From NCBI GenBank assembly GCA_965230915.1, contig OZ246395.1, forward strand, positions 858,431 through 922,430: a stretch of 64,000 bases of DNA, in the 5' to 3' direction. The notes beneath the pieces were generated by a model that was given only the letters and a program-made list of their open reading frames with translations, was not told the DNA's origin and searched no databases. Shown in pieces: positions 6,001 through 62,351 of the stretch. Position 1 is the stretch's first letter. Each line of letters starts with the position of its first letter. The translations under genes were made by a program, and so were the position numbers. This stretch comes from an uncultured Candidatus Saccharibacteria bacterium (lineage in GTDB: Bacteria > Patescibacteriota > WWE3 > 2-01-FULL-39-13).

Positions 6001-8484
6001 AGAAGCTGGCAAAGCCGCCCCCGGTTTACCGAATGCGACAGAAGCATTAGACTCTACGACAATTTTGCCCGGGATATTTATTCGATAATGTTTGTTGGCT
6101 GAATTATCTATTCCTAGCTGCGAACCGGGGGTAACTAACGCCGAAACCCATCCGCCGTTAGATGTATATGCCGCAAAGTCGGTTCGGCTACCCGCACCAT
6201 CGCCGACCGCACCTGATACATTGCCAGTATATATAAGACCTGCGTCCCAATTACGGTCAATCGTAACAACGTGGCTCTCTTTAGTCGCCCAATTTATATC
6301 ATTTGATAAATTCGAAGAATCATTAGTATCCGGATCGGATTTTCCATTACCAACAATAACCATATCTCCATCTGCGGGCGCAGTAGTATTGGCATCTCCA
6401 TATGCTACAAAGTAAATATGTCTATTAGATAAAAATGGATATCTCGTTGAAGAAGTTGCAACTGCCTCTGATTTGGCATAAGCAAGAACAACACTCGTAG
6501 TACGAGCCAACAAAGTTGAACCTGTAGGGTTTTGAGCGTGATTTATAGAGGTCCACTTTAAAACATTTCCGTTTGAAGGTGTCCCGGTATTAGAAAGGGT
6601 AACCGAAACTTCAGCTATTTTTGCCGATTGATCGGTAGTGTAAGTTCCGTTTCCAGGACTGCTGTTTAATGTTATTGGTTGACCGACACCACAAGAGCCG
6701 GAAAAACTTGAAATCGTTCTAGTTATTATTGGGGAGTTATTATCATAAATGGCTACAGTTCCGCCTGTTGCAAACTTTGTATTGTCCTCGACGCAAATTA
6801 CAGCCGTAGCATCTGTGTTTGCCTGAACAGTCTGATGTGCACCCTGAATTATTCTTTGCTTCCAAATTGATCTAGCCACGCTGGCATTTTTAGAAGTTGT
6901 ATAACCGGTAACCATTGCAGAAGTTGTAACAATGGCAGGGCCGTCCGAACAGCTCGCATGTGATGAAGTCACAGATGCAATAGTTCTTTGTATTGTAGCT
7001 GTATCTGAATCCCAAATATCAATATATTGATTAGCCGCAAAACCGGTAGTAGAAGCTACACAAATTACCGTTGTTGCGGTTGAATTAGCAGTAAGAGTAG
7101 TTAAAGTTGCCCCATCATCAACCCAAGAAGCACCTGTCGCACCGTCAGTAGCGGTTGTCAGTTTTCTTGCTTGAGTTCCTGATACCGAGCCTACAATGGT
7201 CCAATCGCTTGTGGCCGATGAATAGGTCGCGGTCCAGTGCTCATTTTCAGTCCTTCTTGCTGTAGGCAATCCAACTCCCGCGGAAGAATTAGCGACGACC
7301 ATTCCACCTAATAAAGATGCTGAACCGCCAAGCACACTATTTGAAGTCAACGCAGGCGGCATATTCATAGTAGAGGCACTTGTAGCATCAATATCAATTA
7401 CGCCGAGTGTTCTAACAGTTCCATTTACCGAAGCAAAACCATTAGACTGAGGCGATTCGCCCCATACTCCAAGAGCAGTCGTCGCCGGAGCAGTCGCTCC
7501 CATATTTATAATGCGTATTCCATAATGCTTAGTCGTCGAAACGCCCGGATCAACAGCCAAAGGCGGATCAAATCTAAAATCTAGAGTTGCTCTACCAAAA
7601 TTACCCGGCTGGGAATTTTCGCCAGATGTAGCCTGATTAAATTGCCATACAGTTCTTCTTTCGACAACAGTATCCGAAGGGTAAGTATAAGCACCCTGTG
7701 TGCCTGTTACATAATTCGAACACGATGAAGTACAGCTCGCGGATGGAAACCTTAGAAGCTCAACCACAATATCGCTGTTTGAAAGCGAAGTCGATGTAAT
7801 GTTTTCCATGATTATCTGAACACCGGCTATATTGCCGTCATCTGAAGGCGTAAAACCAATAAATTGTGCCGCCGCATAAGTTGCTGTCGCCGCCATAGGA
7901 ACGTATCCGACTGCCAAGCCTCCGGCAGAACCATCGGTCGTACCACCCGGGTGAATTGGGTTAAAGGTTCCCGATTCGGCATCACCGTTAACACCATCGC
8001 CCGAATATGCCATCGCTGTATACCAGTCACCATCAGTAGATAGGGTCGTACTTTGCTTTGATATTTTAACCGCACCTGTAAACGTCGCCGCAAAAGGCTT
8101 TGGCGCAAATAATTTTGACGATACAAATATAAAAATTGCAACAAAAGCTGGAGCTAAAAATACAATCGCCAAGACAAGAGGTAAATGCCTTCGGACATAC
8201 AAAACAATCTTTGCCGGAGTTAGATTTTTTATATCTCTATAAAAATTTTTAATGAGTTTTTTGTAATCGGTAGTTCTGAAAGTTCTGTATAAATTTTTAG
8301 AAAATATAATTATTTCCTTCTTCGAAAACCTGACATTCTTGATTTTTTTAATAAGGAAAATGATTGATGGAATTATTCCCGAAGTCTTTTCTTTTATAGT
8401 TTTAGGTAAGTTCGCTAATAAGGTCTGCCACACAACCATCTTTCGACGGTAAACTGACTTTCGCCTGGGCAGATTAGTTCGCAT
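1..8484 (-). CDS. Giant cell-surface protein, partial (start at 8484, continues past window start; >2820 codons in window). N-terminal TM anchor, parallel beta-helix-like repeats, LamG/concanavalin-like motif, repeated ~65-aa T/S-rich modules
   Basis: Manual translation of the minus strand from ATG (rc of cat at 8482-8484) stays open to position 1 with protein-like composition. The ORF track shows no >=60-aa ORF in this frame and only short ORFs in the other frames, as expected if one frame runs off the edge. TM helix LVLAIVFLAPAFVAIFIFV near the N-terminus; ISNNIFSINNYGIRLYGNSFFNMSDNVF is a PbH1-like beta-helix repeat; GSIDEFAIFDDDID is a LamG-like motif. Confidence 0.85.
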   Translation of the reverse strand, partial: MRTNLPRRKSVYRRKMVVWQTLLANLPKTIKEKTSGIIPSIIFLIKKIKNVRFSKKEIIIFSKNLYRTFRTTDYKKLIKNFYRDIKNLTPAKIVLYVRRHLPLVLAIVFLAPAFVAIFIFVSSKLFAPKPFAATFTGAVKISKQSTTLSTDGDWYTAMAYSGDGVNGDAESGTFNPIHPGGTTDGSAGGLAVGYVPMAATATYAAAQFIGFTPSDDGNIAGVQIIMENITSTSLSNSDIVVELLRFPSASCTSSCSNYVTGTQGAYTYPSDTVVERRTVWQFNQATSGENSQPGNFGRATLDFRFDPPLAVDPGVSTTKHYGIRIINMGATAPATTALGVWGESPQSNGFASVNGTVRTLGVIDIDATSASTMNMPPALTSNSVLGGSASLLGGMVVANSSAGVGLPTARRTENEHWTATYSSATSDWTIVGSVSGTQARKLTTATDGATGASWVDDGATLTTLTANSTATTVICVASTTGFAANQYIDIWDSDTATIQRTIASVTSSHASCSDGPAIVTTSAMVTGYTTSKNASVARSIWKQRIIQGAHQTVQANTDATAVICVEDNTKFATGGTVAIYDNNSPIITRTISSFSGSCGVGQPITLNSSPGNGTYTTDQSAKIAEVSVTLSNTGTPSNGNVLKWTSINHAQNPTGSTLLARTTSVVLAYAKSEAVATSSTRYPFLSNRHIYFVAYGDANTTAPADGDMVIVGNGKSDPDTNDSSNLSNDINWATKESHVVTIDRNWDAGLIYTGNVSGAVGDGAGSRTDFAAYTSNGGWVSALVTPGSQLGIDNSANKHYRINIPGKIVVESNASVAFGKPGAALPASSYSDIHFDNVSPAASTTLTVDSAASTTLTVTSTTGFAVGDTIILDDNNSVAITRVIAAIQSGTSITLTAAAVTGYTTAQGAYIAKGITTELPTGSDRRAGVFTMTGIIAASTQTNFRTGRVSLYADGSSDFRTSKSDLAVDIDGNIDTGYLGNNLTDAGNTWVDVEDNVVGNWQPTDEIAVGGGTNLPPDNNISTLEMGSVDDAAQMPLWTGGVTAGGKNDLPAPNMEVSEIGTVPLTNIYNANYNGGSVSYSSNYANSTAWTIFGDSANSEVNDAVYFADQGNSMFYSLEFNIGTLMSASASYVWEFWNGSNWISFTPRDSYIYQPRTDYSMPLSADITRNSYTITIPEGGANFGLDQIVMIDDDDSSPIYRRLGTTAPTATVLTFAEPLPSGYTTAQNARVSRLNGGHWVSVDPTSVFSSNTGRKILSWTPSNLTGTPAKTTINSVNAYWVRARISSFSSWTTSPANQTTPIGMSGIERLSSGAIAVSSGVQEAKLSEVTPGASYDPNETWTLEYGNSPGWIETQKYTSAQALPSAPYIWHIDSGTLNVNATNVQHLVLHNGSLTGTDYTISALVKMDMVADATSRRVGVMMRQNLDGNGYAALITKTNAANTIGWYTTLAGVPTLIGSATTKAFSEDTWYCLKAQVSGTTLNAKFWATSDCSSGEPGSWDETETNATYTAGRFGLYTGSATASQGMKALFDTVSTDTGFSDTFTDTGTWNVVGSTQGSIGTATPGTPFTSSYINFTLKHKGGRNGVTPPEIGDKIYLSSTGIRSYKGLDSAVGITTSNGDTKYELWDFEWDPTQSKYTVTGSATGSSGTATPGTTYTSPDDEISLRIPSGSPTATKFGDRMLLLQDNYLRNNGSWTGVNGIGSAVLVYPTYAITSSSIATRYNIEGQSGTASARQNGTIDFWFKANYSGSPSNPKGAYLVDYANLGDTNRLFIRHTPDGYLEAAIYAAAAQGTLLRQSFSPTAGQWYHFRLAWDETANAKRAWLDGTPFTTGQASTVGTRGANAGLVIIGNRYTYDAAFDGSIDEFAIFDDDIDTSAGCNYGSFTPPSSAWTGGETVTCSGSGVAGTNIFRASFDSAMNPREGWVWADYAFGNPSIIFTNGADTGNERIRVITYPQRTRVWVDNTGDKYTPSARIKSGSGFLENAALATLTGWSNNFTYHHKAKRESEDNPTYSPVLNLKRNTHIWSTENISYTGATTGAPINAGLGFGPVAVGLSGLATLDFSDVSMENQYSNFSIVGNPYTSAAVKPTQRVSNSVFYNFYDRAYTVSGKTEGTNYVGAYFVTTNFAAANIGSGYNASTSQNVGIDGSIFMGNRNAYVTVPPAAANGAAAFFSGRLYTVSNSEFYNNGVAGSGTSGALNFSSGVAKVTISNNIFSINNYGIRLYGNSFFNMSDNVFDGHTSSDVVTVGSEYGSGIRFAQTASSIAITDDGSVFGRGLWNESDINTSPNTATFEAESLAQFTGSGTQFLSPVLFGTAGYTNMSRIPEHYFGTTIPGTDIRGTYSTNTKDIVNFTTFGNMRTTGQSLSDTTVRTSGGYSWRMEPTSADVTLDYTAKVVGVATKPLAVTGYIYVNDAYGSSNLPTVTLSGLGMTGDNLTWTASDDPGTWQQFVVSGTPTESALAELVISVKNNFVASDSGTNEVIALPIGNYLPPMFEDVDKSWTPNQWVGYKLKDSNGKIFDIVRNTSQILYLKGTVVPFLRSTTFAATTVGDYVIYEPPYVYIDDVSILSGSVDTGTLDFYADGQPVSPWLSTGLTAEGVWAAQYSNFADTDGSFGQLLQDSLVANYANVSDPSATTTSFNTNLTSATDNFYNDGVIIFTEGQNTGVVRRISDYAGASKTITLDPALPFSPANGNRFAILAATSSSTGGGGGASAADIWSYALRSLTTADLDSGSLATQADIDGLNDITAQQVWEYGTRTITGEVALTSASRSAIWDSACSILNTSGSVGKRVCDNLDAAVSSRSTLTAADVWAEATRTITGITDPA

Positions 8485-16100: not shown

Positions 16101-16787
16101 ATTTACACAACAAAAGATGAAGATTTAGAAACCGGGGATATAGTTTCAATTGACCCTGACTTATCGACAGGTGTAATGAAAAGCTCCAAACCTTACGATA
16201 AAAGTGTTATTGGAATAGTCTCCACAAGTCCCGGAGTCGTAATCGGTTCAGTACAAAAAGAAGGCGTCAAAGCCATGCCTATTGCTTTAAGTGGACGCGT
16301 ACCGACCAAAGTGTCGACAGAAAACGGATCAATATACCCAGGAGACTACCTTACAACTTCATCTATTCCCGGTGTCGCTATGAAATCTACGAAAGCTGGT
16401 CCGATTATTGGAACCGCAATAAATTCATTCGATGACGATAAAGTTGGAAAAATTTTAGTCTTTGTTAAAAATGGATCTTCAAATATAGATTCGGGCGAGA
16501 ATGAATTTGTTAATTCCTTCGGAAAAACCACAGTTAAATCAGGTGAGTCCGAAGCTCAGATTGATTTCTCTGACGAATACAAAAAACAATTAGCAGATAC
16601 AAAAGTAAGTCCATTCATAAATATAAGCCCGAGTCTGAATGATGAAGATGAAATTGAGGACTTACCTCAATATGCCGTATTCGACATCTCTAAAGAAGGT
16701 TTTAAAATAAAAATTTCTAAGACAACAGGGTTTGATATTGATTTTTCGTGGGTCGCTGTTTCACCAAATTCCAAAAACCATGAGTGA
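13122..16787 (+). CDS. 1221-aa membrane-anchored protein: N-terminal MerR-type HTH, single TM, large S/T/N/G-rich extracellular region with a tandem ~135-aa repeat and a conserved C-terminal domain
   Basis: AEQTAKLLGITTDKLSILERQGILHPLKTANGNIQY matches the MerR HTH pattern. TM segment SLYVAGSFIAVYILLVIIFIISF. Internal tandem duplication ~14170-14990. Upstream palindrome GTTACataacaGTAAC at 13091-13106. Confidence 0.8.
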   Translation: MDYFSAEQTAKLLGITTDKLSILERQGILHPLKTANGNIQYPKSDIVQIKSHNRHSISEEAELMGSVIQKDLVKSTSLMKKSLYVAGSFIAVYILLVIIFIISFSSNPIQTAKWLGIIRNSEATSTLALNSNGGNVLGASTIENEKDSVVQTILQPVGKVSLKLVKNIKPDAYAEVSEVTILDPNDVLKLNTDGNMVPEKPIDIADSSLLKVRESDLVENLNSQYVQGRQPGTNPGDLAIVGDNSQEVAAPIIVQDNTLAEKISELTNDNFSGNAAISNSNLANSSITINTSGPISGGDTIALGGAIDIDCPTCITDDSDFVTEGSTNTFINKSINATDNTITGLNSINLEAGDYSSKITSGTYSINITGTVDTAINFSGQLLGDVTGTQTATSVEKIKGQSLGNVLPTSGNILIGNGSEWNSELLSGDATIDASGVITLKNTGTAGIFGSSNSIPIITTDAQGRVLSASTTLITGLGPSSLSSGDYSSVINSGIYNIDISGNASTATSATSANTATTANSATNFTGNLLGDVTGTQSSTIVEKINGENLGIVTPTSGNLLIGSGTEWVTKSLSGDATVNSSGLVSLVNTGTAGTYGSSSEIPVIITDSKGRVTGVANTSIANLSVSNFISQNISQWTNDSSFITNSSINNLTNKTISGITNTLSDISNSSLSNSSITFAGNVGSGNISLGSTINILGGGINSTSYSSGTLTITGTEADTLSSVTGRGSSTNNTLTLNGGINTTTTTNLNLDTGTTGSILIGTGFNSKNIGVGNTFGSTSLNLFSGTGNINLVAGPTSSSEKVQIGNSASATPDILVLDNGTADPSGINGAMYYNTATNKFRCYQNGWTNCISNVGADIQNAVSYDTSQDLTNIGSAQVTVTSVTVTPTTATGDVYVRAKAEILSSNGTDQTLVLSIEDNATCTGSTLTSNPITITSASGTVIGDFELSAVEVDAGTSPQSYSLCASTATGDTDIRLYQMFATVIDTGSDLAEIYTTKDEDLETGDIVSIDPDLSTGVMKSSKPYDKSVIGIVSTSPGVVIGSVQKEGVKAMPIALSGRVPTKVSTENGSIYPGDYLTTSSIPGVAMKSTKAGPIIGTAINSFDDDKVGKILVFVKNGSSNIDSGENEFVNSFGKTTVKSGESEAQIDFSDEYKKQLADTKVSPFINISPSLNDEDEIEDLPQYAVFDISKEGFKIKISKTTGFDIDFSWVAVSPNSKNHE
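14170..14990 (+). repeat. In-frame tandem duplication (~135 aa x2) inside the 1221-aa gene
   Basis: SGDYSSKITSGTYSINITG...GDVTGTQTATSVEKIKGQSLGNV...TGTAGIFGSSNSIPIITTDAQGRV repeats as SGDYSSVINSGIYNIDISG...GDVTGTQSSTIVEKINGENLGIV...TGTAGTYGSSSEIPVIITDSKGRV. Confidence 0.8.
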
Positions 16788-17865
16788 GAATAATTTTTAT
16801 GATGATGGCCCGGACTTCGGCCCAGATTCACTTGTAAATGAAATAAATTCTTTGGCACATAAATATTATCCCGCCGAAAACCCAAGCGAAATTCCTGAAA
16901 ATAACTTCACTCATCTGACTAGAAATATATACATTCAAGCCGGAGTTCCAGTCTTGGCTTTAACTTACTTAATGTTATTTAGCAATTCGCAAAACACGAG
17001 TGCTCAAAGCACTGTTGAAATTCATGTGGAACCCTCAACAATTGCGAATGCTGCGTGCTATCCGGATGAACTAGAATTCCAAATTACAAATGTAAATGAA
17101 GATAATGCTCCCGGAACAATTTGGGTCAGCTGGAACGACGAAACTTTACAAATTGAAATCTTTGCAGTAGATCAAAACGGTACTGCAATATATCACGTTA
17201 CTGATCCCGACTTGCTCGATGGAATATTGGAAGACTCATGGACAGAAATATTTGCACAATGGATAGGACAATTTGTAGTCAAAGGGTGTGCCACTCCAAC
17301 ACCAACATTCACTGCAACCTCAACGGAAACTCCAACACAAACCTATACAGCTACGGCAACTGAAACATCTACCGAGATGGCTACTTCGACTTCCACGTCT
17401 ACATCTACAGCAACGGCTACTTCGACCTCGACCCCAACTTTTACTGAGACACCTAACCCAACAGCGACAGCAACAGATACGTCAACAGCGACCCAAACTC
17501 CTAGCCCAAGTACAACATCAACTCCCAGCACAACCTCAACGCCAATTCCAAGCTCGACTTCTACATCAACGGAGACTCCAACTGTAACTTCTACAAATAC
17601 ACCAAATGCTACGACAACAGAAACTCCAACTCAAACCTTTACCAGTACTCCATCACCGACACAAACACGCACCAATACCCCTACTAATACTCCTGTTGAA
17701 TTGGTAGAAACTAACACTCCTACTTTTACGCCAGATCCATCGCCTACAGCCCCAACCCATACTGGCTCCCCCACACCAACAGATATAACGCCAAAACCTA
17801 CGGCGACAATAGAACCGACAGCTACGAAACCTAAAATATATGCCCCTGAAATCGAAAAAAACTAG
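16780..17865 (+). CDS. Secreted/surface protein with a long Thr/Pro/Ser-rich mucin-like C-terminal linker (start placed at the ATG overlapping the upstream stop in ATGAGTGA)
   Basis: Hydrophobic N-terminal segment VPVLALTYLMLF; ~170-aa TPT/TST low-complexity tract (17290-17800). The track start at 16732 overlaps the upstream gene, and the internal ATG at 16780 gives a 4-8-nt overlap typical of coupled genes. Confidence 0.65.
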   Translation: MSENNFYDDGPDFGPDSLVNEINSLAHKYYPAENPSEIPENNFTHLTRNIYIQAGVPVLALTYLMLFSNSQNTSAQSTVEIHVEPSTIANAACYPDELEFQITNVNEDNAPGTIWVSWNDETLQIEIFAVDQNGTAIYHVTDPDLLDGILEDSWTEIFAQWIGQFVVKGCATPTPTFTATSTETPTQTYTATATETSTEMATSTSTSTSTATATSTSTPTFTETPNPTATATDTSTATQTPSPSTTSTPSTTSTPIPSSTSTSTETPTVTSTNTPNATTTETPTQTFTSTPSPTQTRTNTPTNTPVELVETNTPTFTPDPSPTAPTHTGSPTPTDITPKPTATIEPTATKPKIYAPEIEKN

Positions 17866-17942: not shown

Positions 17943-17982
17943 TCCGCGGGCTGGACGTTATCAGAACTGAGGTTTTAGAATT
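17943..17982. repeat. att-like direct repeat, copy 1: the 14-nt 3' end of tRNA-Asn (TCCGCGGGCTGGAC) plus 26 nt identical to copy 2. Left boundary of the tRNA-Asn island
   Basis: 40/40 identity with 18645-18684. The first 14-15 nt equal the 3' acceptor/T-arm end of the tRNA at 19228-19302. Confidence 0.85.
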
Positions 17983-17984
17983 TA

Positions 17985-18046
17985 TTGAAGTTGTTTCGAC
18001 TTGACCTTCCCAAATCTCATCAGACACTAAGTGTAACAACTTGCAA
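17985..18046 (-). ncRNA. Type III hammerhead ribozyme (HHR-1), immediately 3' of gene 18131..18532
   Basis: Minus-sense 5'-UUGCAAGUUGUU^ACAC-UUA-GUGU-CUGAUGA-GAUUUG-GGAAGGU-CAAGUC-GAAA-CAACUUCAA. Conserved CUGAUGA and GAAA cores. Stem I is 4 bp with a triloop, stem II 6 bp with loop GGAAGGU, stem III 7 bp including A15.1:U16.1. Cleavage triplet GUU. Two paralogs covary. Confidence 0.85.
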
Positions 18047-18130
18047 GAATAAAGTATGACTGAGATTTCGGTATTTGAAACCGATTGAAGTGTAGCGCTA
18101 GGCTAAACTCTATTAATCTCAAGCAATACT

Positions 18131-18532
18131 CTACCCTTGCCTCTTGTGTGCTACTTTAAACTTGACCATACCGGCGCTCGTCATGAGCATCCATGATCCT
18201 GGGATAAACTGCACCCAGCCGTCGATCTCAATCTCATCGCCACCATTCCCTCGGTAAACCGAAGCTATTATGTTCAGGACTTTATCCCTGAACTCATCAG
18301 CAACAGTTTCCACAACCTCGCCAGGATTCGTCTGAATCTCGACATACAAATGTGCCGCATCTGGATCCACACTCAAAATCTCTAATCCAAACGCATTCAC
18401 GATTATATCGTCACTTGGCAAGCCATAATCCGTACCCGCCATAACCTTTACTTCACGGCGAATTTTATCTGTGGAATCAATCAAAAATGTCTTAACTCCA
18501 AGATCCATAGCTAACAGTTTAATCAGTGGCAT
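18131..18532 (-). CDS. Hypothetical 133-aa protein, GC-richer cassette gene P1
   Basis: Own promoter (TTTAAA-17-TATAAT) and SD AAGGAG 9 nt before the ATG; followed by HHR-1. No recognisable domain. Confidence 0.7.
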   Translation of the reverse strand: MPLIKLLAMDLGVKTFLIDSTDKIRREVKVMAGTDYGLPSDDIIVNAFGLEILSVDPDAAHLYVEIQTNPGEVVETVADEFRDKVLNIIASVYRGNGGDEIEIDGWVQFIPGSWMLMTSAGMVKFKVAHKRQG

Positions 18533-18585
18533 GGCTTTCGACTCCTTTTGCCATTTCTAAAACATACCTATTCGGAATTAATAGG

Positions 18586-18623
18586 ATTGTGCATGATTAT
18601 ACTATAAATACAGGTCGATTTAA
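18586..18623 (-). promoter_or_regulatory. Sigma70-type promoter of cassette P1 (TTTAAA-17-TATAAT) with upstream CCCATAGTATTT motif
   Basis: rc of 18586-18591 is TATAAT, rc of 18609-18614 is TTTAAA, spacer 17. Motif CCCCATAGTATTT directly upstream, next to the att repeat. Confidence 0.6.
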
Positions 18624-18644
18624 ATACTATGGGGCATAAATGGG

Positions 18645-18684
18645 TCCGCGGGCTGGACGTTATCAGAACTGAGGTTTTAGAATT
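18645..18684. repeat. att-like direct repeat, copy 2 (identical 40 nt), separating cassettes P1 and P2
   Basis: TCCGCGGGCTGGACGTTATCAGAACTGAGGTTTTAGAATT is identical to 17943-17982, 703 bp away. Confidence 0.85.
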
Positions 18685-18694
18685 AGTTAATTGG

Positions 18695-18760
18695 AAATAA
18701 AAAAACCGCCTCATGATTTTGATTGTCGTAATGACTTTCGCGTCATAAAGCGGGTTAATC
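18695..18760 (-). terminator. Terminator-like structured region 3' of cassette gene P2 (nested hairpins, then UUUUUUUAUUU), where P1 has a hammerhead instead
   Basis: Minus-sense CCGCUUUAUGACGCGAAAGUCAUUACGAC...CAUGAGGCGGUUUUUUUAUUU; the inner AUGAC-GCGAAA-GUCAU hairpin sits inside a longer imperfect stem. Confidence 0.4.
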
Positions 18761-18785
18761 TAAACAGGTTAAGGGTTAGATTCCC

Positions 18786-19139
18786 TTACTTGAGGAGCTT
18801 TAGCTCAGATAGAGGGGGATATGCTGATCCCCAAAAGAAATACTTATCCGAAAATCCAGAACCACTCAATAGTAAGTAGCTAACCGAGGCCATAGGTGTC
18901 GAAGTAAATCGATATTGGTTCCTATCAATTTCCGTCAAGCCAACTCGCCCGTTTCCCCAGACCATAACGCCTGCTAACAGCTGAGGTAAGTATGTTTTCC
19001 GATGTTCTCCTAAATAGGAGTACACTGGGAACATCATTTGGATCAACTCTTCATCCGAGTTGCTAAATACAGGAATCCGCCCCTCTGCTAGAGTCTTTGC
19101 CCAACCACTTACGATAGCATTTAAATCGTCGGTGATCAT
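18786..19139 (-). CDS. Hypothetical 117-aa protein, cassette gene P2, first gene after tRNA-Asn
   Basis: ORF directly downstream of a consensus promoter abutting the tRNA; visibly higher G+C than flanks; no recognisable domain. Confidence 0.65.
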   Translation of the reverse strand: MITDDLNAIVSGWAKTLAEGRIPVFSNSDEELIQMMFPVYSYLGEHRKTYLPQLLAGVMVWGNGRVGLTEIDRNQYRFTSTPMASVSYLLLSGSGFSDKYFFWGSAYPPLSELKLLK

Positions 19140-19186
19140 TATGTCCTCTTTCTTTGTGGATGAACCTTCTAATGAGAATTTGTGAG

Positions 19187-19215
19187 ATTTTAACAGTTTA
19201 CGACAAGCCTGTCAA
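19187..19215 (-). promoter_or_regulatory. Consensus sigma70 promoter (TTGACA-17-TAAAAT) immediately 3' of tRNA-Asn, reading into P2
   Basis: rc of 19210-19215 is TTGACA, rc of 19187-19192 is TAAAAT, spacer 17. Preceded by CCTATAGTG. Confidence 0.65.
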
Positions 19216-19227
19216 CACTATAGGATA

Positions 19228-19302
19228 CGTGGCTCCGCGGGCTGGACTCGAACCAGCAACCTCGAAGTTAACAGCTTCTTGCTCCACCATTGAGCTACCG
19301 CG
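19228..19302 (-). tRNA. tRNA-Asn (anticodon GTT), CCA encoded
   Basis: rc gives TCCGCGG-TA-GCTC-AATGGTG-GAGC-A-AGAAG-CTGTTAA-CTTCG-AGGTT-GCTGG-TTCGAGT-CCAGC-CCGCGGA-G-CCA, a cloverleaf with 7-bp acceptor stem, U33 and anticodon GUU. Confidence 0.9.
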
Positions 19303-19319
19303 GAATATTGGTGCTGCAG

Positions 19320-28791: not shown

Positions 28792-29613
28792 CTAGTTACT
28801 AAACAAGTATGGAATCAACAACTGTCGTTGTGGCGCGGGTTCATCCAAAAATCGGATTACTTTGGAGTTTCCAATTTTCAGAGAATAGATGTCGACTGCT
28901 TTATCGATCGTCATAGGAATACTTACAGCAGTCGCACCGCCGTCGGCGTTAAGCGCGAAGCCACTGATCAGATTTCCATTCTGCTCGATGCTCCAGCCGG
29001 AAACTTCTTGCGCAGTGAAATCTATTTCACCTGAGACCTTGAGTTCAAATGAAGTAAAAACTTTCGAATCTACGATCTCGATGAAATCACGATCGCCAAA
29101 ATACTGAGCGGTTGGCAGAATTCTGAATTCGCCGTCCTGCAGTTGAAAGTTAGGCTCTTTGCCTTTCCCAAACGAGAAATGGTTGAGGTCAATAAGGCCA
29201 ATCTGACCGGCTTCGCCTGTTACAGTGTATTGAACCGCAAACAAAATACGCGTTCCTTGGGCCGTAATGGTATAAGGATTATCGAACCTCAAATCAATCT
29301 GTGATGTACGCAGATTTTGATCGATAGACCCACCCGCAAATCCGAGTATAGATGCTGCAGTCATTGTTATATTACTGAACTGCAAAATCTTAGGATCTGC
29401 TCTCAAACCGACCTCAATATTAGTGACTTCGTAATCACTTATATCGGATGCGTAAATGGGAATGGTAACAAGCGTGCCTGGAGCACCCTTGAACGGACTA
29501 ACCGTGACGACAACGTCTGAAAGTTGGGCATTAACAATTGACCAACCTACAAGCATCGCAACTACTGCCAAAAGTAGCGGAATTACAAGCATAATCCAGC
29601 GGCGGATATACAT
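28792..29613 (-). CDS. Secreted hypothetical protein (signal peptide, beta-rich), islet gene B
   Basis: MYIRRWIMLVIPLLLAVVAMLVGWSIVNAQ signal; strong SD GGAGGA 7 nt before the ATG; upstream CCCATAGTTAT motif. Confidence 0.65.
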   Translation of the reverse strand: MYIRRWIMLVIPLLLAVVAMLVGWSIVNAQLSDVVVTVSPFKGAPGTLVTIPIYASDISDYEVTNIEVGLRADPKILQFSNITMTAASILGFAGGSIDQNLRTSQIDLRFDNPYTITAQGTRILFAVQYTVTGEAGQIGLIDLNHFSFGKGKEPNFQLQDGEFRILPTAQYFGDRDFIEIVDSKVFTSFELKVSGEIDFTAQEVSGWSIEQNGNLISGFALNADGGATAVSIPMTIDKAVDIYSLKIGNSKVIRFLDEPAPQRQLLIPYLFSN

Positions 29614-29854: not shown

Positions 29855-30478
29855 TTAGAGAGCTAACGTGACAAAGTCGTAGTTGGTTTTGCCAGCCTCA
29901 GAATATCCACTTTGGATATCTTTGGTGCCGGCTTTGACCACAAGGCGCTTCACAACATCGAACTCGACGACAGAGTCGCGAGTTTCGGTCTCGAGCGGAA
30001 GCTCGATCGTCACGATCTCACCGACCATGATGCGGCCGGAATAGGCGACTTGCTTCATGAACTTGCGCTGGCTTTCCTTCAGCAAGTAATACTTGCTGCC
30101 GCCATCGTCACGGTACTCTGACCATTCGGAATCCGGAATTAACGCTATTACACCTAGCTGAGTCTTCAAACGAGCGTCTTCCCAGCGGGCAGAACCGCCT
30201 TTCGGGAAATCAGCAAACACATGCCCAACGGGGCGCTGCGGCTTTACGTTATCCGGGTCGGCAACGATAATACCGACGCGCGTAAACGCTAGGTCGTAAG
30301 TCAAATCCCCCGTCGGAATATAGCACGGCAACATTTCGATGCGCCGGCGGCGATCTGCCTCCTCGTACATCTTAATTGTGACCGGCATAAGTTTCGGCTC
30401 GCCAGCTTTCACAGGCACAGTCAATTCGACGCCGACCAACAACTCTTCCTCAGTGTACATACGCATAAGACCTGTCAT
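29855..30478 (-). CDS. Hypothetical protein, GC-rich islet gene C (start at internal ATG MTGLMRMY)
   Basis: Promoter TTGGAA-16-TATAAT (-10 is rc of 30534-30539) lies inside the longer track ORF, so M20 is used with purine-rich RBS AGAAAGAGAGAC. Visibly GC-rich. Confidence 0.6.
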   Translation of the reverse strand: MTGLMRMYTEEELLVGVELTVPVKAGEPKLMPVTIKMYEEADRRRRIEMLPCYIPTGDLTYDLAFTRVGIIVADPDNVKPQRPVGHVFADFPKGGSARWEDARLKTQLGVIALIPDSEWSEYRDDGGSKYYLLKESQRKFMKQVAYSGRIMVGEIVTIELPLETETRDSVVEFDVVKRLVVKAGTKDIQSGYSEAGKTNYDFVTLAL

Positions 30479-30533
30479 TTTTGTCTCTCTTTCTATAGTG
30501 TGCAATATATCCTGCCTTTGCAAGAATGGCTGC

Positions 30534-30576
30534 ATTATACCTCATTTTAGGGGATTTTCCAAATACTATGGGATGG
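30534..30576 (-). promoter_or_regulatory. Promoter of islet gene C: CCATCCCATAGTATT-TTGGAAAATCC-...-TATAAT-GCAGCC, sharing TTGGAAAATCC and GCAGC with the tRNA-Asn promoter
   Basis: Direct comparison with 19320-19348 (minus sense). Confidence 0.55.
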
Positions 30577-30652
30577 AACCAGGGGAATATTAGCCTGTAA
30601 CAGCGCAATTGCTGCACCATCGGCTCCAGGCATATGTTGTAATAAAAATTAT

Positions 30653-31855
30653 CTACAAATCCTCAATAGCTGAAACCTCGATATTTAAACCCCTAGAGGC
30701 GACCATACTTTTTGCTTCATCAATTCTATCTTTTGGTACAAAAATAATTCGAATCCCTTCGATCGGAACACCATCTTTTAAACAAATCTCAGATTTATAG
30801 TCACTCTGTGGAATAATAACTTCAGAGGTAATTCCAGAATATTCTCCGGTAGTTTTATCTTGCTGTCTCCAGCTAACATCGCTGCCTGTCTGGATATCAG
30901 CCCCCACAAAATATAAAACAGGAAAGCTTTCTCTGATAAGCTGTTCGTGTTCTTTTTCTTTGTCATTTTTATCCGGTTTTTGTAAAAAAGCTAAGGTGTC
31001 TTGTAAATCTCTGATTTTTATTTGTATCGACTCGTAAAAAACATTTTCTTCACCCATTTTTTGTGCGCGTTCAGTAAACTCTCTTAAATCCCTTCTAATT
31101 GATTCTTCTGAAACACCCCCGTCACCTCTTTTAGCATATCCTACTGCATCTTTATAGTCATTCAACTTAGCTAAACTTATGTATTTATTATTTAAATTTG
31201 CACTCCCAAAAACGCCTTCCCCGGAAGCGATCGGCATTTTGTCACGAAGAAATTCTTGAGGCCTTAAACCATGATCAAGAACACCTTGTAATGATGCGCT
31301 GGTTGAACCATGCGCGCCAAAAACCCCATTTTCAAAGATGGATAAAGCTAAGTCTGGGTTATCAGCATACAACTCTGCATATAGCTGGCGATCTTCAAGA
31401 AAATCTGTATAGTTCCATTTACCTAATCTTTCTTCAGGGCTTACAGAACGGCCCAATAATTCGCCATCAAAGACAATTTTATTTATAGCTTCCAGTCTTC
31501 TTCTTTTCTCTTCTTCATTAATCGGTAAATATTCAAGTTTAGCCAAACAACTTTGATAAGAATTAAATAAATTTTGATAACCCCAACCAGCAATGAACTG
31601 GTCAACTTCTGAAAGATTGCTCATAAACTCATCTTTTAGGCCTTCTTCGTCTGGCTGTTCTGTTGATTGTGGAACTTCTTGAGGTTGTGGCTTTTGCTCT
31701 TGGGTTATCGAATAGATACCACTATGGGTATTAATTAGGTTTGGATTAATACTAAAATAGCCCTTTTCATCGCCGGCTTGATCGGACAATTTAAATTCTT
31801 CAGGTGTAGGATCATTTATGCCTTCTATAGCATAAATCGAGTCTGAGCTTGGCAT
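30653..31855 (-). CDS. Hypothetical 400-aa protein abutting the left att repeat of the tRNA-Arg island
   Basis: Long ORF, AT-rich like the host; no recognisable motifs; ATG 27 nt downstream (minus sense) of the att fragment, with no SD. Confidence 0.65.
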   Translation of the reverse strand: MPSSDSIYAIEGINDPTPEEFKLSDQAGDEKGYFSINPNLINTHSGIYSITQEQKPQPQEVPQSTEQPDEEGLKDEFMSNLSEVDQFIAGWGYQNLFNSYQSCLAKLEYLPINEEEKRRRLEAINKIVFDGELLGRSVSPEERLGKWNYTDFLEDRQLYAELYADNPDLALSIFENGVFGAHGSTSASLQGVLDHGLRPQEFLRDKMPIASGEGVFGSANLNNKYISLAKLNDYKDAVGYAKRGDGGVSEESIRRDLREFTERAQKMGEENVFYESIQIKIRDLQDTLAFLQKPDKNDKEKEHEQLIRESFPVLYFVGADIQTGSDVSWRQQDKTTGEYSGITSEVIIPQSDYKSEICLKDGVPIEGIRIIFVPKDRIDEAKSMVASRGLNIEVSAIEDL

Positions 31856-31881: not shown

Positions 31882-31894
31882 TGGTGCACCCAAG
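31882..31894. repeat. att-like direct repeat: 13-nt copy of the tRNA-Arg 3' end (TGGTGCACCCAAG); left boundary of the tRNA-Arg island
   Basis: Identical to 34142-34154 (the 3' end of the tRNA at 34142-34218). Confidence 0.7.
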
Positions 31895-31944
31895 TGATGT
31901 TAATTGGAATCGGGTTTTTGAATTTATATTGAAATTTTAGGAAA

Positions 31945-31998
31945 GTAGTTTCGACTTGATCTTCCCAAGTCTCATCAGGGACTATGTCCGACTAGAAC
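31945..31998 (-). ncRNA. Type III hammerhead ribozyme (HHR-2), 3' of gene 32105..32845
   Basis: Minus-sense 5'-GUUCUAGUC^GGAC-AUA-GUCC-CUGAUGA-GACUUG-GGAAGAU-CAAGUC-GAAA-CUACU. Canonical GUC cleavage triplet. Stem I and II covary with HHR-1 and HHR-3. Confidence 0.85.
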
Positions 31999-32104
31999 AC
32001 CGGAAAGAGAGGTTGAAGAAAAAATTGCAACGATTACTCGCGCAGCTTCAACATCTTCCGATGTTCGGTTGATCTACAAAATTCAAAATGAAATTCGCCG
32101 AAAA

Positions 32105-32845
32105 CTAGGCAGACTTCTCAATCCTCTTGAGTGCCAAAGCCTTCTGGCCAAATGGATTGACTTCCAACTGCTCATTATACTTGGGCAAGGCGTTTATTAG
32201 AGGCAAATGCTGATCCTCCATATATCCAAGCCCTATAAAACGATCCGCCAAAGCCTCATCGCGAAGATACATTCCCCGAGAATGAATCGCCTGCCTAAAC
32301 AGGGCAATATCATCATGACTGAGAGCTTCAACATCTGAATTCTCGAGGAGAAATCCCCACTTTTTAGCGAAACCTTGAAGGCCTTTTGCATCCATAGACG
32401 AAATCGCCTGATGTGAGTATTTAACTCTTAGGCCGGCCACGAAATCAGCGAATGGCATGTACCAAAACTCTTCAGTTCGTAAACGAACTTCTTCTGGTTC
32501 CCATTCATAACCTGTGGCAAAAATACCTAGAGCCACAACTCGATCATTCAGTTCTTCAGTCCACCCGCGGTGGCGGATAGTTTCGCGAAGATAAGGCGTG
32601 TCCTCGATCCCCGAAATATCTTCCTCCGTCACATCAAAGAGCCAACCCTGCAGGTACTGCAATAGGCTGACCTCCGTTGTTCCGAACATCATTAATCCGG
32701 TCAGCCCACCATTGGCAGAGTGCGCCTTGTTCGTTGGCCGAGCAGGTATACTGGGAACTGCTTCCTGTGCGACTTGCTCTTCGACCTTTGAAAAAGGAAA
32801 CAAATTAACAACAAACGATACGAAGGTGTTGATAATGTTTTGCAT
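32105..32845 (-). CDS. Hypothetical 246-aa protein, GC-rich cassette gene P3
   Basis: SD AGGAGA 10 nt before the ATG; followed by HHR-2. Confidence 0.7.
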   Translation of the reverse strand: MQNIINTFVSFVVNLFPFSKVEEQVAQEAVPSIPARPTNKAHSANGGLTGLMMFGTTEVSLLQYLQGWLFDVTEEDISGIEDTPYLRETIRHRGWTEELNDRVVALGIFATGYEWEPEEVRLRTEEFWYMPFADFVAGLRVKYSHQAISSMDAKGLQGFAKKWGFLLENSDVEALSHDDIALFRQAIHSRGMYLRDEALADRFIGLGYMEDQHLPLINALPKYNEQLEVNPFGQKALALKRIEKSA

Positions 32846-32881
32846 GGTAGAAGTTTCTCCTGCTTACTGAAAGTTTTTATA

Positions 32882-32925
32882 TTGCTCGAAGTAACTTTCG
32901 ATTACTCAAAAACTAATTCGAGCAA
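32882..32925. repeat. Inverted repeat TTGCTCGAA-(26 nt)-TTCGAGCAA between cassettes P4 and P3
   Basis: Perfect 9-bp arms read directly; lies between HHR-3 and the P3 start. Confidence 0.45.
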
Positions 32926-32953
32926 TATATTTGTAGATCAATTTTTAATGTAC

Positions 32954-33010
32954 AAAACTGTTTTCGATCTGAGCTTCCCAGATCTCATCAGGCGCTATGC
33001 GCGAACAGCG
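32954..33010 (-). ncRNA. Type III hammerhead ribozyme (HHR-3), ~270 nt 3' of gene 33281..33838
   Basis: Minus-sense 5'-CGCUGUUC^GCGC-AUA-GCGC-CUGAUGA-GAUCUG-GGAAGCU-CAGAUC-GAAA-ACAGUUUU. Stem I GCGC/GCGC and stem II GAUCUG/CAGAUC; both covary against the paralogs. Confidence 0.85.
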
Positions 33011-33280
33011 GGCAAAAGTGAAGCGGAAAGCAAAAGATTAGATAATGATCGAAATGATCATCAAATTCTCATGCTTTAAAAACATGCTTCACTGCCCGTC
33101 TGGCAAACTTTGAAACGAATCCAATGTAGAATTCCCTGAGCTAGTATTTGACACTTTAAGCTATTCCTAGGTAAGTATCTTTCGATCTTACACACTATCA
33201 ATAGCGCCGTACCTTGCGGTCTTGGCAGTCTTGAGCTTTTCATCGGGCTCGTGTTGGATTTACAAACTTCTTACTACCAC

Positions 33281-33838
33281 CTACTTGGGTTCGTATATCC
33301 ACTCGATGTGGTCGAATACGAATGGGCGCGGCGCTTCAACAGAGACGATGGCTTTTAGGCCAGCCTCTTCGATTTTCGCCTTTGGATTGGCGAAGGAGAT
33401 GATCTCCTGCAAAGCGCTTTCCCTCGTCCCATCACGGCCTTCCTGGTGATACCAGACAGGAATTTCCTTCGTCTGAGGACCACTCGGCATAGCCGAAGGA
33501 ACAGAAACCACGACACCCATCCGCGGAAGCGGAACTAGATCTCTCGCGAAATCAGCGGAGGTAAAACCTTCCCATGGAAGTCGTACTAAATCCTTCACAC
33601 CTTCCTGCCAAACCACTACTTTCAGTAGTGCCGATGCCAACGGCGCCGGTACATTCTGAAACAACAAAACTGCATCCTTCTCGACAGCCTTTTTTGCCAA
33701 ATCCAAAAGGACTGGCTTTGTCTCCTCGCCCGTTGCGGGGAAGGTGACATTGATGGTTTCGACAACCTCAACTTGGAGTGTGCCGAAGTCTGGGGCGTGC
33801 CGACCAATAACAATAGCGCGAATCGTTGCATTTTGCAT
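33281..33838 (-). CDS. Hypothetical 185-aa protein, GC-rich cassette gene P4
   Basis: RBS GAAAGGG; ~250-nt leader from a consensus promoter next to tRNA-Arg; followed by HHR-3. Confidence 0.7.
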   Translation of the reverse strand: MQNATIRAIVIGRHAPDFGTLQVEVVETINVTFPATGEETKPVLLDLAKKAVEKDAVLLFQNVPAPLASALLKVVVWQEGVKDLVRLPWEGFTSADFARDLVPLPRMGVVVSVPSAMPSGPQTKEIPVWYHQEGRDGTRESALQEIISFANPKAKIEEAGLKAIVSVEAPRPFVFDHIEWIYEPK

Positions 33839-34095
33839 GGTGCTTTCAACCCTTTCAAGATTGAAACTTACATCAGTTTCTAAGCTCCCATTGGAGTTAG
33901 CTTCAGATCACCTGAAGAAACAACCTACGTTTTTCCATCGTAAGCTGATTCCTCAGGCAATCTTCAATTAGTTTGCCAAATTTTTAATGTACTTTTTGAG
34001 ACTTTTTGTGGGGTATAGCCTTTAGGGCCTTGCCGTTAAAAAAGCTCAGAAATCAATGGACTTTTTGATATCCGAACCTTTCAACTTAATGGCTA

Positions 34096-34124
34096 CATTA
34101 TATTACGAAAAGGCTAGCCTGTCA
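34096..34124 (-). promoter_or_regulatory. Perfect consensus sigma70 promoter (TTGACA-17-TATAAT) immediately 3' of tRNA-Arg, reading into the island
   Basis: rc of 34119-34124 is TTGACA, rc of 34096-34101 is TATAAT; preceded by CCTATAGTA. Confidence 0.7.
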
Positions 34125-34141
34125 ATACTATAGGCTAGTGT

Positions 34142-34218
34142 GGTGCACCCAAGAGGATTCGAACCTCTGGCCTCAACTTCCGCAAAGTTGCGCTCTATCC
34201 AGCTGAGCTATGGGTGCT
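34142..34218 (-). tRNA. tRNA-Arg (anticodon GCG), CCA encoded
   Basis: rc gives GCACCCA-TA-GCTC-AGCTGGATA-GAGC-G-CAACT-TTGCGGA-AGTTG-AGGCC-AGAGG-TTCGAAT-CCTCT-TGGGTGC-A-CCA. Arg-type D and T arms; anticodon loop UUGCGGA. Confidence 0.85.
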
Positions 34219-34288: not shown

Positions 34289-34780
34289 ATGAGAAAAGTA
34301 GTTCTAGCGGTAATCGGTATAATCCTCTTTGCAATTTTGCTATTTGTCGGCCAGGTAGTCTGGGGATTTTACACAGCTGTTCAAGATTACAATTCACCTG
34401 TAAACCCCCAAACTACTACTGAAACTGATCCTGACAAATTATTAGAAGAAGCAAGCCCTCAACAAAGATCAAAATATGCGACTATTAAATCTCAAATTTC
34501 TTCGATTTCTCGCATGATGGCGATTTATTATGTCGAGCATCAAACTTATCCGCCATGCGACGCTACTGCAATCGACATAGCGGGATTAAGTGCAAAAACA
34601 AATGCTAGTGGGCAATGTATTTTGACAGATCAATTGGGCACCGAATATATCTATTCAAATAAAGGTGAGTGCGCAAAATTATCCACAAAATCTAACCTAA
34701 GCGACAATATGTATATAAATGAAAATGTGGCTAAACCAATAGGCAATAAAGATTTTGCGAATATGGATCTTTGTGAATAG
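34289..34780 (+). CDS. Secreted/membrane-anchored hypothetical protein with several Cys (start at MRKVVLAV... since the track start overlaps the tRNA)
   Basis: N-terminal hydrophobic helix VLAVIGIILFAILLFVGQVVWGF; Cys in C-terminal half. Confidence 0.55.
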   Translation: MRKVVLAVIGIILFAILLFVGQVVWGFYTAVQDYNSPVNPQTTTETDPDKLLEEASPQQRSKYATIKSQISSISRMMAIYYVEHQTYPPCDATAIDIAGLSAKTNASGQCILTDQLGTEYIYSNKGECAKLSTKSNLSDNMYINENVAKPIGNKDFANMDLCE

Positions 34781-60727: not shown

Positions 60728-61051
60728 ATGGCAAGAATCGTTTTGTATCAAACCATTAGAATAAGAGGCAAACGTATGTTACCAGTAGATCTATCCGTAG
60801 AAGATATAACCATACGGGTATTATCAGGACAAACAAAGTTGATCCATTTCGGACGCACCACGCACGAAGGCGAGGCAGCGATACTTTTAACTTTCTGCCC
60901 TGAGAGCAAATATGAGAAGAGCAGTTTTATTGTGCAAGGGACGAAAGTCTTCAACCTAAGCGGTAAAAAACCTGGGTTTGTAATGGGGTTTCTCACAAAA
61001 ACAGGTTCCCATGTAACAATAGAACCAGCAAAAGCTCCAAACATAAATTAG
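60728..61051 (+). CDS. Small hypothetical protein (107 aa), first gene of GC-richer islet; probably leaderless
   Basis: TATAAT at 60716-60721 lies only 6 nt before the ATG. The overlapping antisense ORF 60748..61044 cannot be excluded. Confidence 0.4.
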   Translation: MARIVLYQTIRIRGKRMLPVDLSVEDITIRVLSGQTKLIHFGRTTHEGEAAILLTFCPESKYEKSSFIVQGTKVFNLSGKKPGFVMGFLTKTGSHVTIEPAKAPNIN

Positions 61052-61223
61052 CCTTTGGCAATTGCCGCAGGCTAAGGTTTTATAACTCCGACGGGAACGT
61101 GGAAGCTAGAATGGCTCGCCATTCTACCCTGAAATCTTGCTTCCACAGTTTTACCCACTTTTACCTATAGTTATTGTATAATTTTGCCACGCTAAGATTC
61201 GCACACTGAAAGGAGCCTTTATA

Positions 61224-61529
61224 ATGATCCTAAGACTTGAGGTTGAACTGCTCGTTGTTGAATTCAATCCAGATAAAATTGGCCTACCTCGAATATGGTC
61301 CGGATACCGTCCAGATATCTGGACAAGCAACCAAAATCCAAGTGCCGCCAGGCTATCTTGGCGCTGGGGACACAAAGACAGATGGGGAGCGATTGTTGAG
61401 ATTGCAAACGACAGGGTCCTTTTCATAGACCAAAGTCACAGACGCATAAGAATACTGACTAAAGACAATGTCGACATCACTCCTCCAAGTACACCCGCAG
61501 AAAAACGGGCTCGCCAACAAGGCCCATAG
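61224..61529 (+). CDS. Small hypothetical protein (101 aa), GC-rich islet
   Basis: Promoter CCTATAGTTATTGTATAAT (TGnTATAAT-like) and SD GAAAGGAG 9 nt before the ATG. Confidence 0.6.
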   Translation: MILRLEVELLVVEFNPDKIGLPRIWSGYRPDIWTSNQNPSAARLSWRWGHKDRWGAIVEIANDRVLFIDQSHRRIRILTKDNVDITPPSTPAEKRARQQGP

Positions 61530-61618
61530 TGTATTGACCCGCTTAATATAATGTTGTATATTAACGCCAAGTTTTAGGCAGTTAATCGAGTTTTTAGGCT
61601 TAGAAAGGCGATTTAGCC

Positions 61619-61837: not shown

Positions 61838-61858
61838 AGTTTATCTCTGTACCAAAAG

Positions 61859-62329: not shown

Positions 62330-62351
62330 CAAAGGAAAGGTTAAGACCCTT

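Follow-up and report, generated by a model that had tools for sequence, protein, structure and literature searches.

An integrase-less islet at a tRNA-Arg gene of a WWE3-like Patescibacteria genome, with two foreign genes each followed by a type III hammerhead motif

The islet described here lies at the 3' end of a tRNA-Arg(GCG) gene of an uncultured bacterium (GenBank assembly GCA_965230915.1, contig OZ246395.1), within a window of 64,000 nucleotides (positions 858,431 to 922,430 of the contig), which is the whole stretch of DNA analysed and to which all coordinates refer. It is about 2.26 kb in size and, read on the minus strand, contains a promoter module, the genes P4 and P3, each followed by a type III hammerhead motif (HHR-3 and HHR-2, respectively), and a second copy of the 3' end of the tRNA gene. 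The elements that a sequence-only reading of this stretch had listed, namely tRNA-Arg(GCG), a promoter with all 12 consensus positions, P4, P3, two hammerheads, an inverted repeat and a 13-nt tRNA repeat, were all located. The features of the islet, in the direction of reading, are as follows.

34141-34217, minus strand: tRNA-Arg(GCG), annotated by ARAGORN (Rfam, 68.6 bits)
34141-34153, minus strand: attL-side copy of the direct repeat, CTTGGGTGCACCA, the final 13 nt of tRNA-Arg
34097-34134, minus strand: left-end promoter module, beginning 6 nt past the CCA of tRNA-Arg
34116-34134, minus strand: CCTATAGTATTGACAGGCT, a 19-mer in the left module, whose only other site in the window is 19206-19224
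34120-34125 and 34097-34102, minus strand: -35 (TTGACA) and -10 (TATAAT) elements of a sigma-70 promoter with a 17-nt spacer, 12 of 12 consensus positions
33839-34090, minus strand: 5' leader of P4, about 250 nt, holding the first copy of GTACATTAAAAATT (33979-33992)
33281-33838, minus strand: P4, 185 aa
33009-33280, minus strand: 3' untranslated region (UTR) of P4, about 272 nt
32958-33008, minus strand: HHR-3, type III hammerhead, core 32962-32991 (74.7 bits with covariance model R1)
32940-32953, minus strand: second copy of GTACATTAAAAATT, about 4 nt past stem III of HHR-3 and 8 nt past the GAAA core
32878-32929, minus strand: inverted repeat in the P3 5' UTR, 24-nt arms, 83% complementary; AGGAG and then ATG follow
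32105-32845, minus strand: P3, 246 aa, with a Shine-Dalgarno sequence
31945-31995, minus strand: HHR-2, type III hammerhead, core 31949-31978 (70.8 bits with R1)
31895-31944, minus strand: right arm from HHR-2 to the repeat, 50 nt, with the motifs AAATTCAAAAACC and TTCCAATTAAC, both present at the ends of the Asn islets too
31882-31894, minus strand: attR-side 13-nt copy of the tRNA-Arg 3' end, CTTGGGTGCACCA

The 13-mer is present exactly twice in the window, the chance expectation being 0.04 when up to one mismatch is allowed. The string shared by the P4 leader and the region upstream of P3 does recur, as the sequence-only reading had it, at a length of 14 exact nucleotides and not 15; with an estimated chance of about 3% (0.03 such repeats per 2.3 kb), this repeat is statistically weak alone. 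No match to an intrinsic terminator was found in the intergenic stretches of the islet, and no match to a promoter was found upstream of P3.

HHR-3 is composed of stem III (CUGUU/AACAG), stem I (GCGC-AUA-GCGC) and stem II (GAUCUG/CAGAUC), and its minimum-energy structure is the hammerhead fold. Cleavage is predicted after C33003 in HHR-3 and after C31990 in HHR-2, 1013 nt apart. A third hammerhead, HHR-1 (core 17994-18023, predicted cleavage after U18035), was found in the tRNA-Asn region of the window, and all three score 70-75 bits with R1. At gathering thresholds, Rfam reported two tRNAs alone; at E <= 10, no twister, pistol or hatchet ribozyme was reported, and HHR-1 and HHR-3 went unreported even at this level, while HHR-2 scored 28.3 bits with the model Hammerhead_3, under the gathering threshold of 48.5. 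Since Rfam scores only HHR-2, the ribozyme call rests on core identity and covariation; the sub-threshold score reflects the seed model and not the definition of the ribozyme (RF00008, clan CL00010).

The GTDB species-representative genomes were searched with the shared pattern CTGATGAG-N4-GGGAAG-N7-CGAAA, which recovered 25 loci, 18 of them with the full hammerhead architecture. True copies score 56-79 bits with R1, and the seven other pattern matches, regarded as chance, at most 24 bits. Labels of the metagenome-assembled genomes are Saccharibacteria, WWE3, CPR3 or Patescibacteria for 17 of the 18 genome copies and Pseudomonadales for the remaining one, the latter label being unconfirmed. 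A stricter pattern gave 24 further copies from metagenomes, and a scan of IMG/VR with the hammerhead pattern gave only two matches, both chance. The hammerhead collection comprises 48 copies (40 distinct sequences) from Patescibacteria (candidate phyla radiation, CPR) genomes and metagenomes.

The consensus of the class is represented by an open stem III of 4-6 bp, stem I of 4 bp with an N-U-A loop, the CUGAUGA core, stem II of 6 bp with a GGAAGNU loop, and GAAA. An alignment of 23 copies, among them the three of the window, shows no variation in the core columns, position H17 is C or U throughout, and the U16.1-A15.1 pair is present in all 40 distinct sequences. Standard pairs make up 98% of the pair cells in the 40 distinct sequences (96-98% with the first set of 23 copies included), compensatory changes on both sides were found in 12 of the 15 pairs, and the covariation score was reached by no shuffle. 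When the partners were slid by 1-3 columns as a control, pairing was 28-41% (28-44% over both sets). The invariant core and the covariation bear out the hammerheads of the sequence-only reading, and the window copies can be concluded to be genuine type III motifs of a subtype overlooked by standard annotation, with self-cleavage predicted. The invariant loops suggest a possible tertiary contact between stem I and stem II. A search of the available literature found no paper relevantly joining hammerheads with Patescibacteria, Saccharibacteria or CPR.

The stem II of HHR-3 and its loop are identical to those of a Saccharibacteria copy (L023), and the window copies are no more similar to one another than to copies from other lineages. 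Paralogy of the three hammerheads, claimed earlier, is therefore indistinguishable from class-level conservation and is not retained here.

The position of the class relative to genes is consistent: a sense-strand open reading frame (ORF) ends upstream of the hammerhead at a median distance of 120 nt in 40 of 45 scorable copies, and a co-directional ORF starts downstream (median 71 nt) in 28 of 41 copies. The genes located 5' of the hammerheads are mutually unrelated. Among their products are many small hypothetical membrane proteins as well as a DDE transposase of IS type, SAICAR synthetase, an AAA ATPase and one protein each of the SPFH and RpoA-CTD-like kinds. No flanking repeats of at least 12 nt, of any kind, were found at 18 other hammerhead genome loci, and no tRNA-derived repeats of at least 12 nt were found at the metagenome hammerhead loci with an upstream tRNA, which were the ones checked. 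As the class shows no link to tRNAs or repeats elsewhere, the ribozyme says nothing about mobility; it is a general 3'-UTR or intercistronic element of Patescibacteria and not an islet signature. The idea that the hammerhead is a hallmark of islands targeting tRNAs accordingly has to be given up, because the class follows many unrelated genes and is almost never near tRNAs or repeats.

Several members of the collection deserve separate description. In contig L040 (1905-2781, minus strand), a tRNA-Glu gene is followed directly by a promoter-like site, a 142-aa ORF and a hammerhead, a layout like that of the window islets; no tRNA-derived repeat was found after this hammerhead. Hammerheads in L052 (2267-2324), L054 (12128-12185), L055 (2161-2218) and L059 (1209-1266) all score 73.3 bits. 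In the two contigs that include the upstream region, L052 and L055, 149 nt separate a DDE transposase gene (Pfam DDE_Tnp_1_4, E 5e-51) from the hammerhead downstream of it, so that an insertion sequence is another setting in which the ribozyme travels. A recurrent family of hypothetical membrane proteins, with the C-terminus ...VC(K/R)PFA(R/S), is encoded directly 5' of the hammerhead on the unrelated contigs L022, L025 and L060, and the L060 member, the one scanned, has no Pfam match. In a Saccharibacteria contig (L013, 1262-1480), DnaA-box-like motifs of the type TTATCCACA are located just 5' of a pair of promoter-ORF-hammerhead cassettes, which suggests that these cassettes may adjoin a replication origin.

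The base composition of the islet differs from that of its surroundings. The GC content is 44-47% in the islet versus about 35% around it, and the GC content at third codon positions (GC3) is 0.54 in P4, 0.47 in P3, and 0.46 and 0.48 in the genes P1 and P2 of the tRNA-Asn region, respectively; GC3 of the host genes, namely those of MetRS, DnaG and a neighbouring 400-aa protein, is 0.27-0.30. P3 and P4 are foreign by composition, and the copy of the tRNA end is placed exactly where the GC3 shift ends. The islet looks inserted.

Homologues of MetRS place the host near candidate division WWE3 and yielded a syntenic relative, L037, in which MetRS is 85% identical, DnaG and sigma-70 are 83% and 94% identical by tblastx, and the gene order is the same. 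In L037, 114 nt separate tRNA-Arg(GCG) from the homologue of the window gene 29855-30535, which is followed by the homologue of the gene 28792-29613; in the window, 3.6 kb lie between tRNA-Arg and the gene 29855-30535. The 13-mer is present only once in L037, and a search of L037 for hammerheads found none. The absence in a related genome that the sequence-only reading had called for was thus found, the islet being missing at the orthologous tRNA-Arg of a different species whose site is not a clean empty one.

A sister array, of two smaller islets, occupies the 3' side of a tRNA-Asn gene in the same window and spans 17943-19304. Its features are as follows.

19230-19304, minus strand: tRNA-Asn
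19206-19224, minus strand: left module
18786-19139, minus strand: P1
18645-18684 and 17943-17982, minus strand: 40-nt repeats
18131-18532, minus strand: P2
17990-18040, minus strand: HHR-1

Two tandem units, of 589 and 702 nt, make up this array, each ending in a 40-nt repeat, the last 14 nt of which equal the tRNA-Asn 3' end. The left module of 19 nt is found at two window sites only, with 18 of 19 positions identical, 5-6 nt past each CCA, and CCTATAGTRTTGACAGGCT is present in the window only beside tRNA-Arg and tRNA-Asn. The right arms of the Arg and Asn islets share AATTC(T/A)AAAACC and TTCCAATTAAC; their alignment score of 27, versus 14.5±2.8 for shuffles, was reached by 3 of 2000 shuffles. 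The islet end motifs are CCTATAGTRTTGACAGGCT, AATTCWAAAACC and TTCCAATTAAC, and the junction sequences to be expected are ...GGTTCGAATCCTCTTGGGTGCACCATAACTTCTAATGATATT for the empty site (attB) and ...TTCCAATTAACATCACTTGGGTGCACCACACTAGCCTATAGTATTGACAGG for the circle (attP). These features fit successive site-specific insertions, possibly by a set of related recombinases that differ in their tRNA cores. When P4, P3 and P1 were looked up by exact match, only contigs identical to the source genome came back, and P2 was absent from the records; these results are uninformative on excision, and one identical contig breaks at the 40-nt Asn repeat, as is expected for a repeat. Convergent on the Asn islets is a 377-aa ORF (16732-17865, plus strand) with degenerate Thr/Pro-rich repeats, a unit of about 56 nt occurring ten times, and no Pfam match.

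A promoter module shared by the two sites, as reported in the sequence-only reading, is represented by the 19-mer at both tRNAs; it is specific to the islets only in part, since its YATAGTRTTKAC/CCYATAG portion precedes ordinary genes too, both here and in L037. The element CC(C/T)ATAG(T) directly precedes or overlaps the -35 region of promoters at window positions 30540-30600, 34116-34134, 19206-19224 and 18615-18632 and at 11592-11610 of L037. It may be a promoter element typical of the lineage or the site of a regulator, as it precedes islet and ordinary genes alike. The claim of one element family targeting tRNA 3' ends keeps its first half, the ends being similar at two tRNAs; with no integrase found, we infer the targeting itself from att-like repeats. 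A candidate for a decayed att copy past the 400-aa gene, at about 30600 and matching at 9 of 13 positions, was rejected as not significant by estimate.

Among the attributes of genomic islands that insert at tRNA genes by tyrosine integrases, the islet shows an insert abutting the tRNA 3' end, a far boundary formed by the 13-nt tRNA repeat, atypical composition and absence at the same site of the different species L037; an integrase inside the island, the remaining attribute, was not found. The islet also agrees with the definition of cis-mobilizable elements (CIMEs), which keep attL and attR and have no integration or transfer genes.

The products of P1-P4 have no recognisable domains, as stated before, no match having been found in Pfam, PHROG or PADLOC. 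Between P4 and a homologue with 75% identity, differences number 36, 28 and 95 at the first, second and third codon positions, a pattern that marks P4 as a real protein-coding gene under purifying selection. Only five homologues of P4 were found in 5.8 billion clusters; the distant ones are encoded in dense phage-like metagenome contigs of small genes and in two viral contigs of IMG/VR. The closest homologous cassette (L036, 912-1828) has the promoter, leader and 3' UTR in common with P4. The MQN- start shared by P3, P4 and the gene at 61985 is trivial, the P4 homologue of L036 starting with MQK and the 61985 gene with GTG. No hammerhead and no tRNA were found in the contexts of the P4 homologues, and a conserved link between the ribozyme and P4 accordingly does not exist; the L036 contig ends 88 nt past the stop codon, too early to reveal a hammerhead after it.

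Conservation between the window and L036 is as high as, or higher than, that of the coding sequence in both the P4 leader and the first part of the 3' UTR (33200-33280). In the 3' UTR, alignment columns 915-975 are nearly identical and the fold has a z-score of -2.05; in the leader, RNAalifold gave 68 pairs, 10 of them with changes on both sides, in an alignment of only two sequences. No match to Rfam was found, and the leader and UTR may represent an undescribed cis-regulatory RNA. P3 is an ORFan: its only match among 1.84 billion cluster representatives was itself, and no homologue was found in two very large protein searches. Its single-sequence AF2 model is unusable (pLDDT 35).

The interpretation favoured here, with moderate confidence, is that of a CIME-like islet lacking an integrase and forming one transcription unit, in which the hammerheads would part the mRNAs of the cassettes from one another and define where each ends. 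The islet would have been inserted by site-specific recombination at the 3' end of tRNA-Arg(GCG) in a WWE3-like Patescibacteria genome and would be related to the two smaller islets stacked at tRNA-Asn; mobilisation would depend on a recombinase supplied in trans. The sigma-70 promoter at the left edge would drive a structured leader, P4, its 3' UTR, HHR-3, the hairpin and Shine-Dalgarno sequence, P3 and HHR-2, and, as no intrinsic terminator was found, transcription may continue through to the 400-aa gene of the host. Self-cleavage after C33003 and C31990 would yield two mRNAs, one of about 1.09 kb for P4 and one of 1.01 kb for P3, the latter beginning with the ribozyme body and the long hairpin, and a third, downstream product may carry the 400-aa gene. 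Upstream pieces would end in a 2',3'-cyclic phosphate and downstream pieces would begin with a 5'-OH and a folded ribozyme. The ribozymes would thus mark the cassette boundaries, providing 3'-end formation and insulation of messages instead of terminators.

A number of observations weigh against this interpretation. A scan of the islet and of 30 window ORFs, about half of the total, revealed no integrase, excisionase or other recombinase. The direct repeat is only 13 nt long, and tRNAs and flanking repeats are almost never near members of the hammerhead class elsewhere. Absence of the islet in L037, a different species, could reflect deletion, and L037 also lacks the two genes that flank the islet on either side:

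30653-31855, minus strand: 400-aa gene beyond the repeat, no known domains, GC3 like that of the host
34290-34780, plus strand: pilin-like gene past the tRNA, weak match to T2SSG (E 3e-4)

As these genes outside the repeat are missing, L037 is not a clean empty site, and the neighbourhood of tRNA-Arg is therefore variable beyond the repeat-bounded islet. A metagenome scan (JGI) for the same tRNA-Arg, seeking empty sites or other cargo, gave zero matches, and the P4 cassette of L036 is not located beside a tRNA. Minimal hammerheads can be slow at physiological Mg2+, and stem I is merely 4 bp long with a 3-nt loop, although the conserved loops suggest a tertiary contact.

Of the systems described in the literature, the clustered hammerheads of prophages and integrase-linked regions are comparable: in prophages, copies on either side of single genes have been shown to cut polycistronic transcripts of 2 kb in vitro (Perreault et al. 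2011, PMC3088659). In both cases several copies on the same strand bracket single unknown or accessory genes in acquired DNA, and the cutting of a long transcript into gene-length mRNAs is proposed. The present case differs in its Patescibacteria host, in that no prophage or integrase was found, in the compact type III form, and in the tiny autonomous cassettes with their own consensus promoter. CIMEs are known as decayed integrative and conjugative or integrative and mobilizable elements of Firmicutes, usually kilobases long (PMC5704250). Like them, the islets are DNA bounded by att repeats of tRNA 3' ends without integration or transfer genes, with a tandem array at tRNA-Asn; unlike them, they measure 0.6-2.3 kb and have no known parent element.

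In Prochlorococcus, according to a preprint (bioRxiv 10.1101/2020.12.28.424599), flexible genes amass at a few tRNAs of a streamlined genome with partial tRNA copies, similar to the arrangement described here, and successive insertions push older ones inward. Tycheposons are described there as containing a tyrosine recombinase and often replication genes; a recombinase was not found in the present case, and ribozymes are not reported in the searched portion of that text.

Integron cassettes resemble the islet units as small single-ORF units after one strong promoter, each with a structured end of about 55 nt. The hallmarks of integrons, namely IntI with attI and cassettes ending in attC, are absent: no integrase was found in the ORFs scanned, the cassette ends are hammerhead cores and not R and L boxes of attC, the first islet unit comes with a promoter of its own, and the units lie at a tRNA 3' end. 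Phage morons, described by Hendrix and colleagues, reportedly occur inside prophages and end in terminators. They are likewise self-contained units of promoter, gene and 3' end with foreign composition, and the P4 family is present in viral contigs; the islet differs in having a ribozyme as its 3' boundary and in lying at a tRNA gene. RiboJ is an engineered ribozyme insulator from a satellite RNA that makes downstream expression independent of upstream sequence. By analogy, the hammerhead-type ribozymes between the transcript segments of the islet, which are natural, are predicted to insulate.

A third GC-rich stretch (43-45%) of the window, at 61040-62400 on the plus strand, contains three small ORFs (about 61225, about 61620 and 61985-62329), each with its own promoter-like site preceded by CTATAGT/CATAGTGTATTGAC. 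On inspection, what follows these ORFs appears to be not hammerheads but long hairpins, one at 61850-61898 and one, with a T-run, at 62352-62395; no tRNA or repeat was found nearby. A strict terminator scan called no terminators in the sister cassettes, so that any interchangeability of terminators and hammerheads rests solely on the reading of the 61-kb hairpins.

Another explanation, to which we give a small share of belief, is that a recombinase encoded elsewhere captures sub-kilobase units of promoter and ORF and stacks them at tRNA 3' ends serving as attI-like sites. The hammerheads would then be RNA insulators and 3'-end formers at cassette boundaries, and the system would be an analogue of integrons and not a set of decayed elements. 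It is consistent with the tiny size of the units (589 nt, 702 nt and 2.26 kb), their tandem array, with its 40-nt repeats, at tRNA-Asn, the presence of the same left modules and right-arm motifs at two different tRNAs, the composition of each unit (one ORF, own promoter, defined 3' element) and the third GC-rich group of promoters and ORFs at 61.0-62.4 kb. That group, however, has neither a tRNA nor a repeat, the arrangement is known from one genome only, none of the 30 window ORFs scanned encodes a recombinase, the other hammerhead loci checked have no flanking repeat of at least 12 nt, and tandem accretion of decayed elements at tRNAs fits equally (PMC5704250; bioRxiv 10.1101/2020.12.28.424599).

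A reading without any mobile element, in which the lineage would have gained P4 and P3, as genes specific to it, by some unspecified route and the 13-nt match would be a coincidence, is improbable. The missing integrase, the shortness of the repeat, the position of the L036 P4 cassette away from tRNAs and the differences of L037 outside the repeat, in the 400-aa and pilin-like genes, would all agree with this; on the other hand, an exact 13-mer lies right at the end of the GC3 shift, the chance expectation is 0.04 even with one mismatch, tRNA-Asn has the same architecture with longer, 40-nt repeats, and the end sequences are alike at both sites. An RNA-level element similar to retrozymes or viroids, in which the 1013-nt RNA between the cleavage sites would be ligated into a P3-coding circle, maybe as the propagating form, is very improbable: two same-strand hammerheads do flank one ORF and circular products were raised as a possibility for clustered bacterial hammerheads, but these were not detected (Perreault et al. 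2011, PMC3088659), the hammerhead copies resemble one another over about 59 nt only (71-80% identity), with none of the long terminal direct repeats that hold the hammerheads of retrozymes, neither a reverse transcriptase nor a ligase turned up among the scanned window ORFs (about half), the class mostly consists of single copies that follow ordinary genes, and att repeats at the DNA level already explain the insertion.

At the start of the window (1-8200, minus strand), one ORF exceeds 2,733 codons and continues beyond the window edge. An apparent 7.8-kb stretch without ORFs at this position was rejected as an artefact of the ORF listing, the giant minus-strand ORF being located there; its product is probably a surface protein.

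Since bacterial hammerheads were discovered in large numbers in 2011, their biological role has been a standing question. The islet represents neither a new kind of mobile element nor a new class of ribozyme; new are the host lineage, the compact subtype with a consistent position after ORFs over 48 copies, and the very small cassettes without an integrase. The compact type III subtype is common in Patescibacteria, below the Rfam thresholds and consistent in location, and the window offers its cleanest setting, autonomous units of promoter, gene and ribozyme without a terminator match. RNA ends are predicted at 33003/33002 and 31990/31989, with a single transcription start near 34090 and none before P3, and metatranscriptomes could address the role of the ribozymes as transcript boundaries in minimal-genome bacteria. 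Very small integrase-less islets at tRNA sites are hereby documented in a genome of the CPR, a group with poorly described mobile elements. If cassette capture were true, these islets would constitute a functional analogue of integrons made from tRNA att sites and ribozymes.

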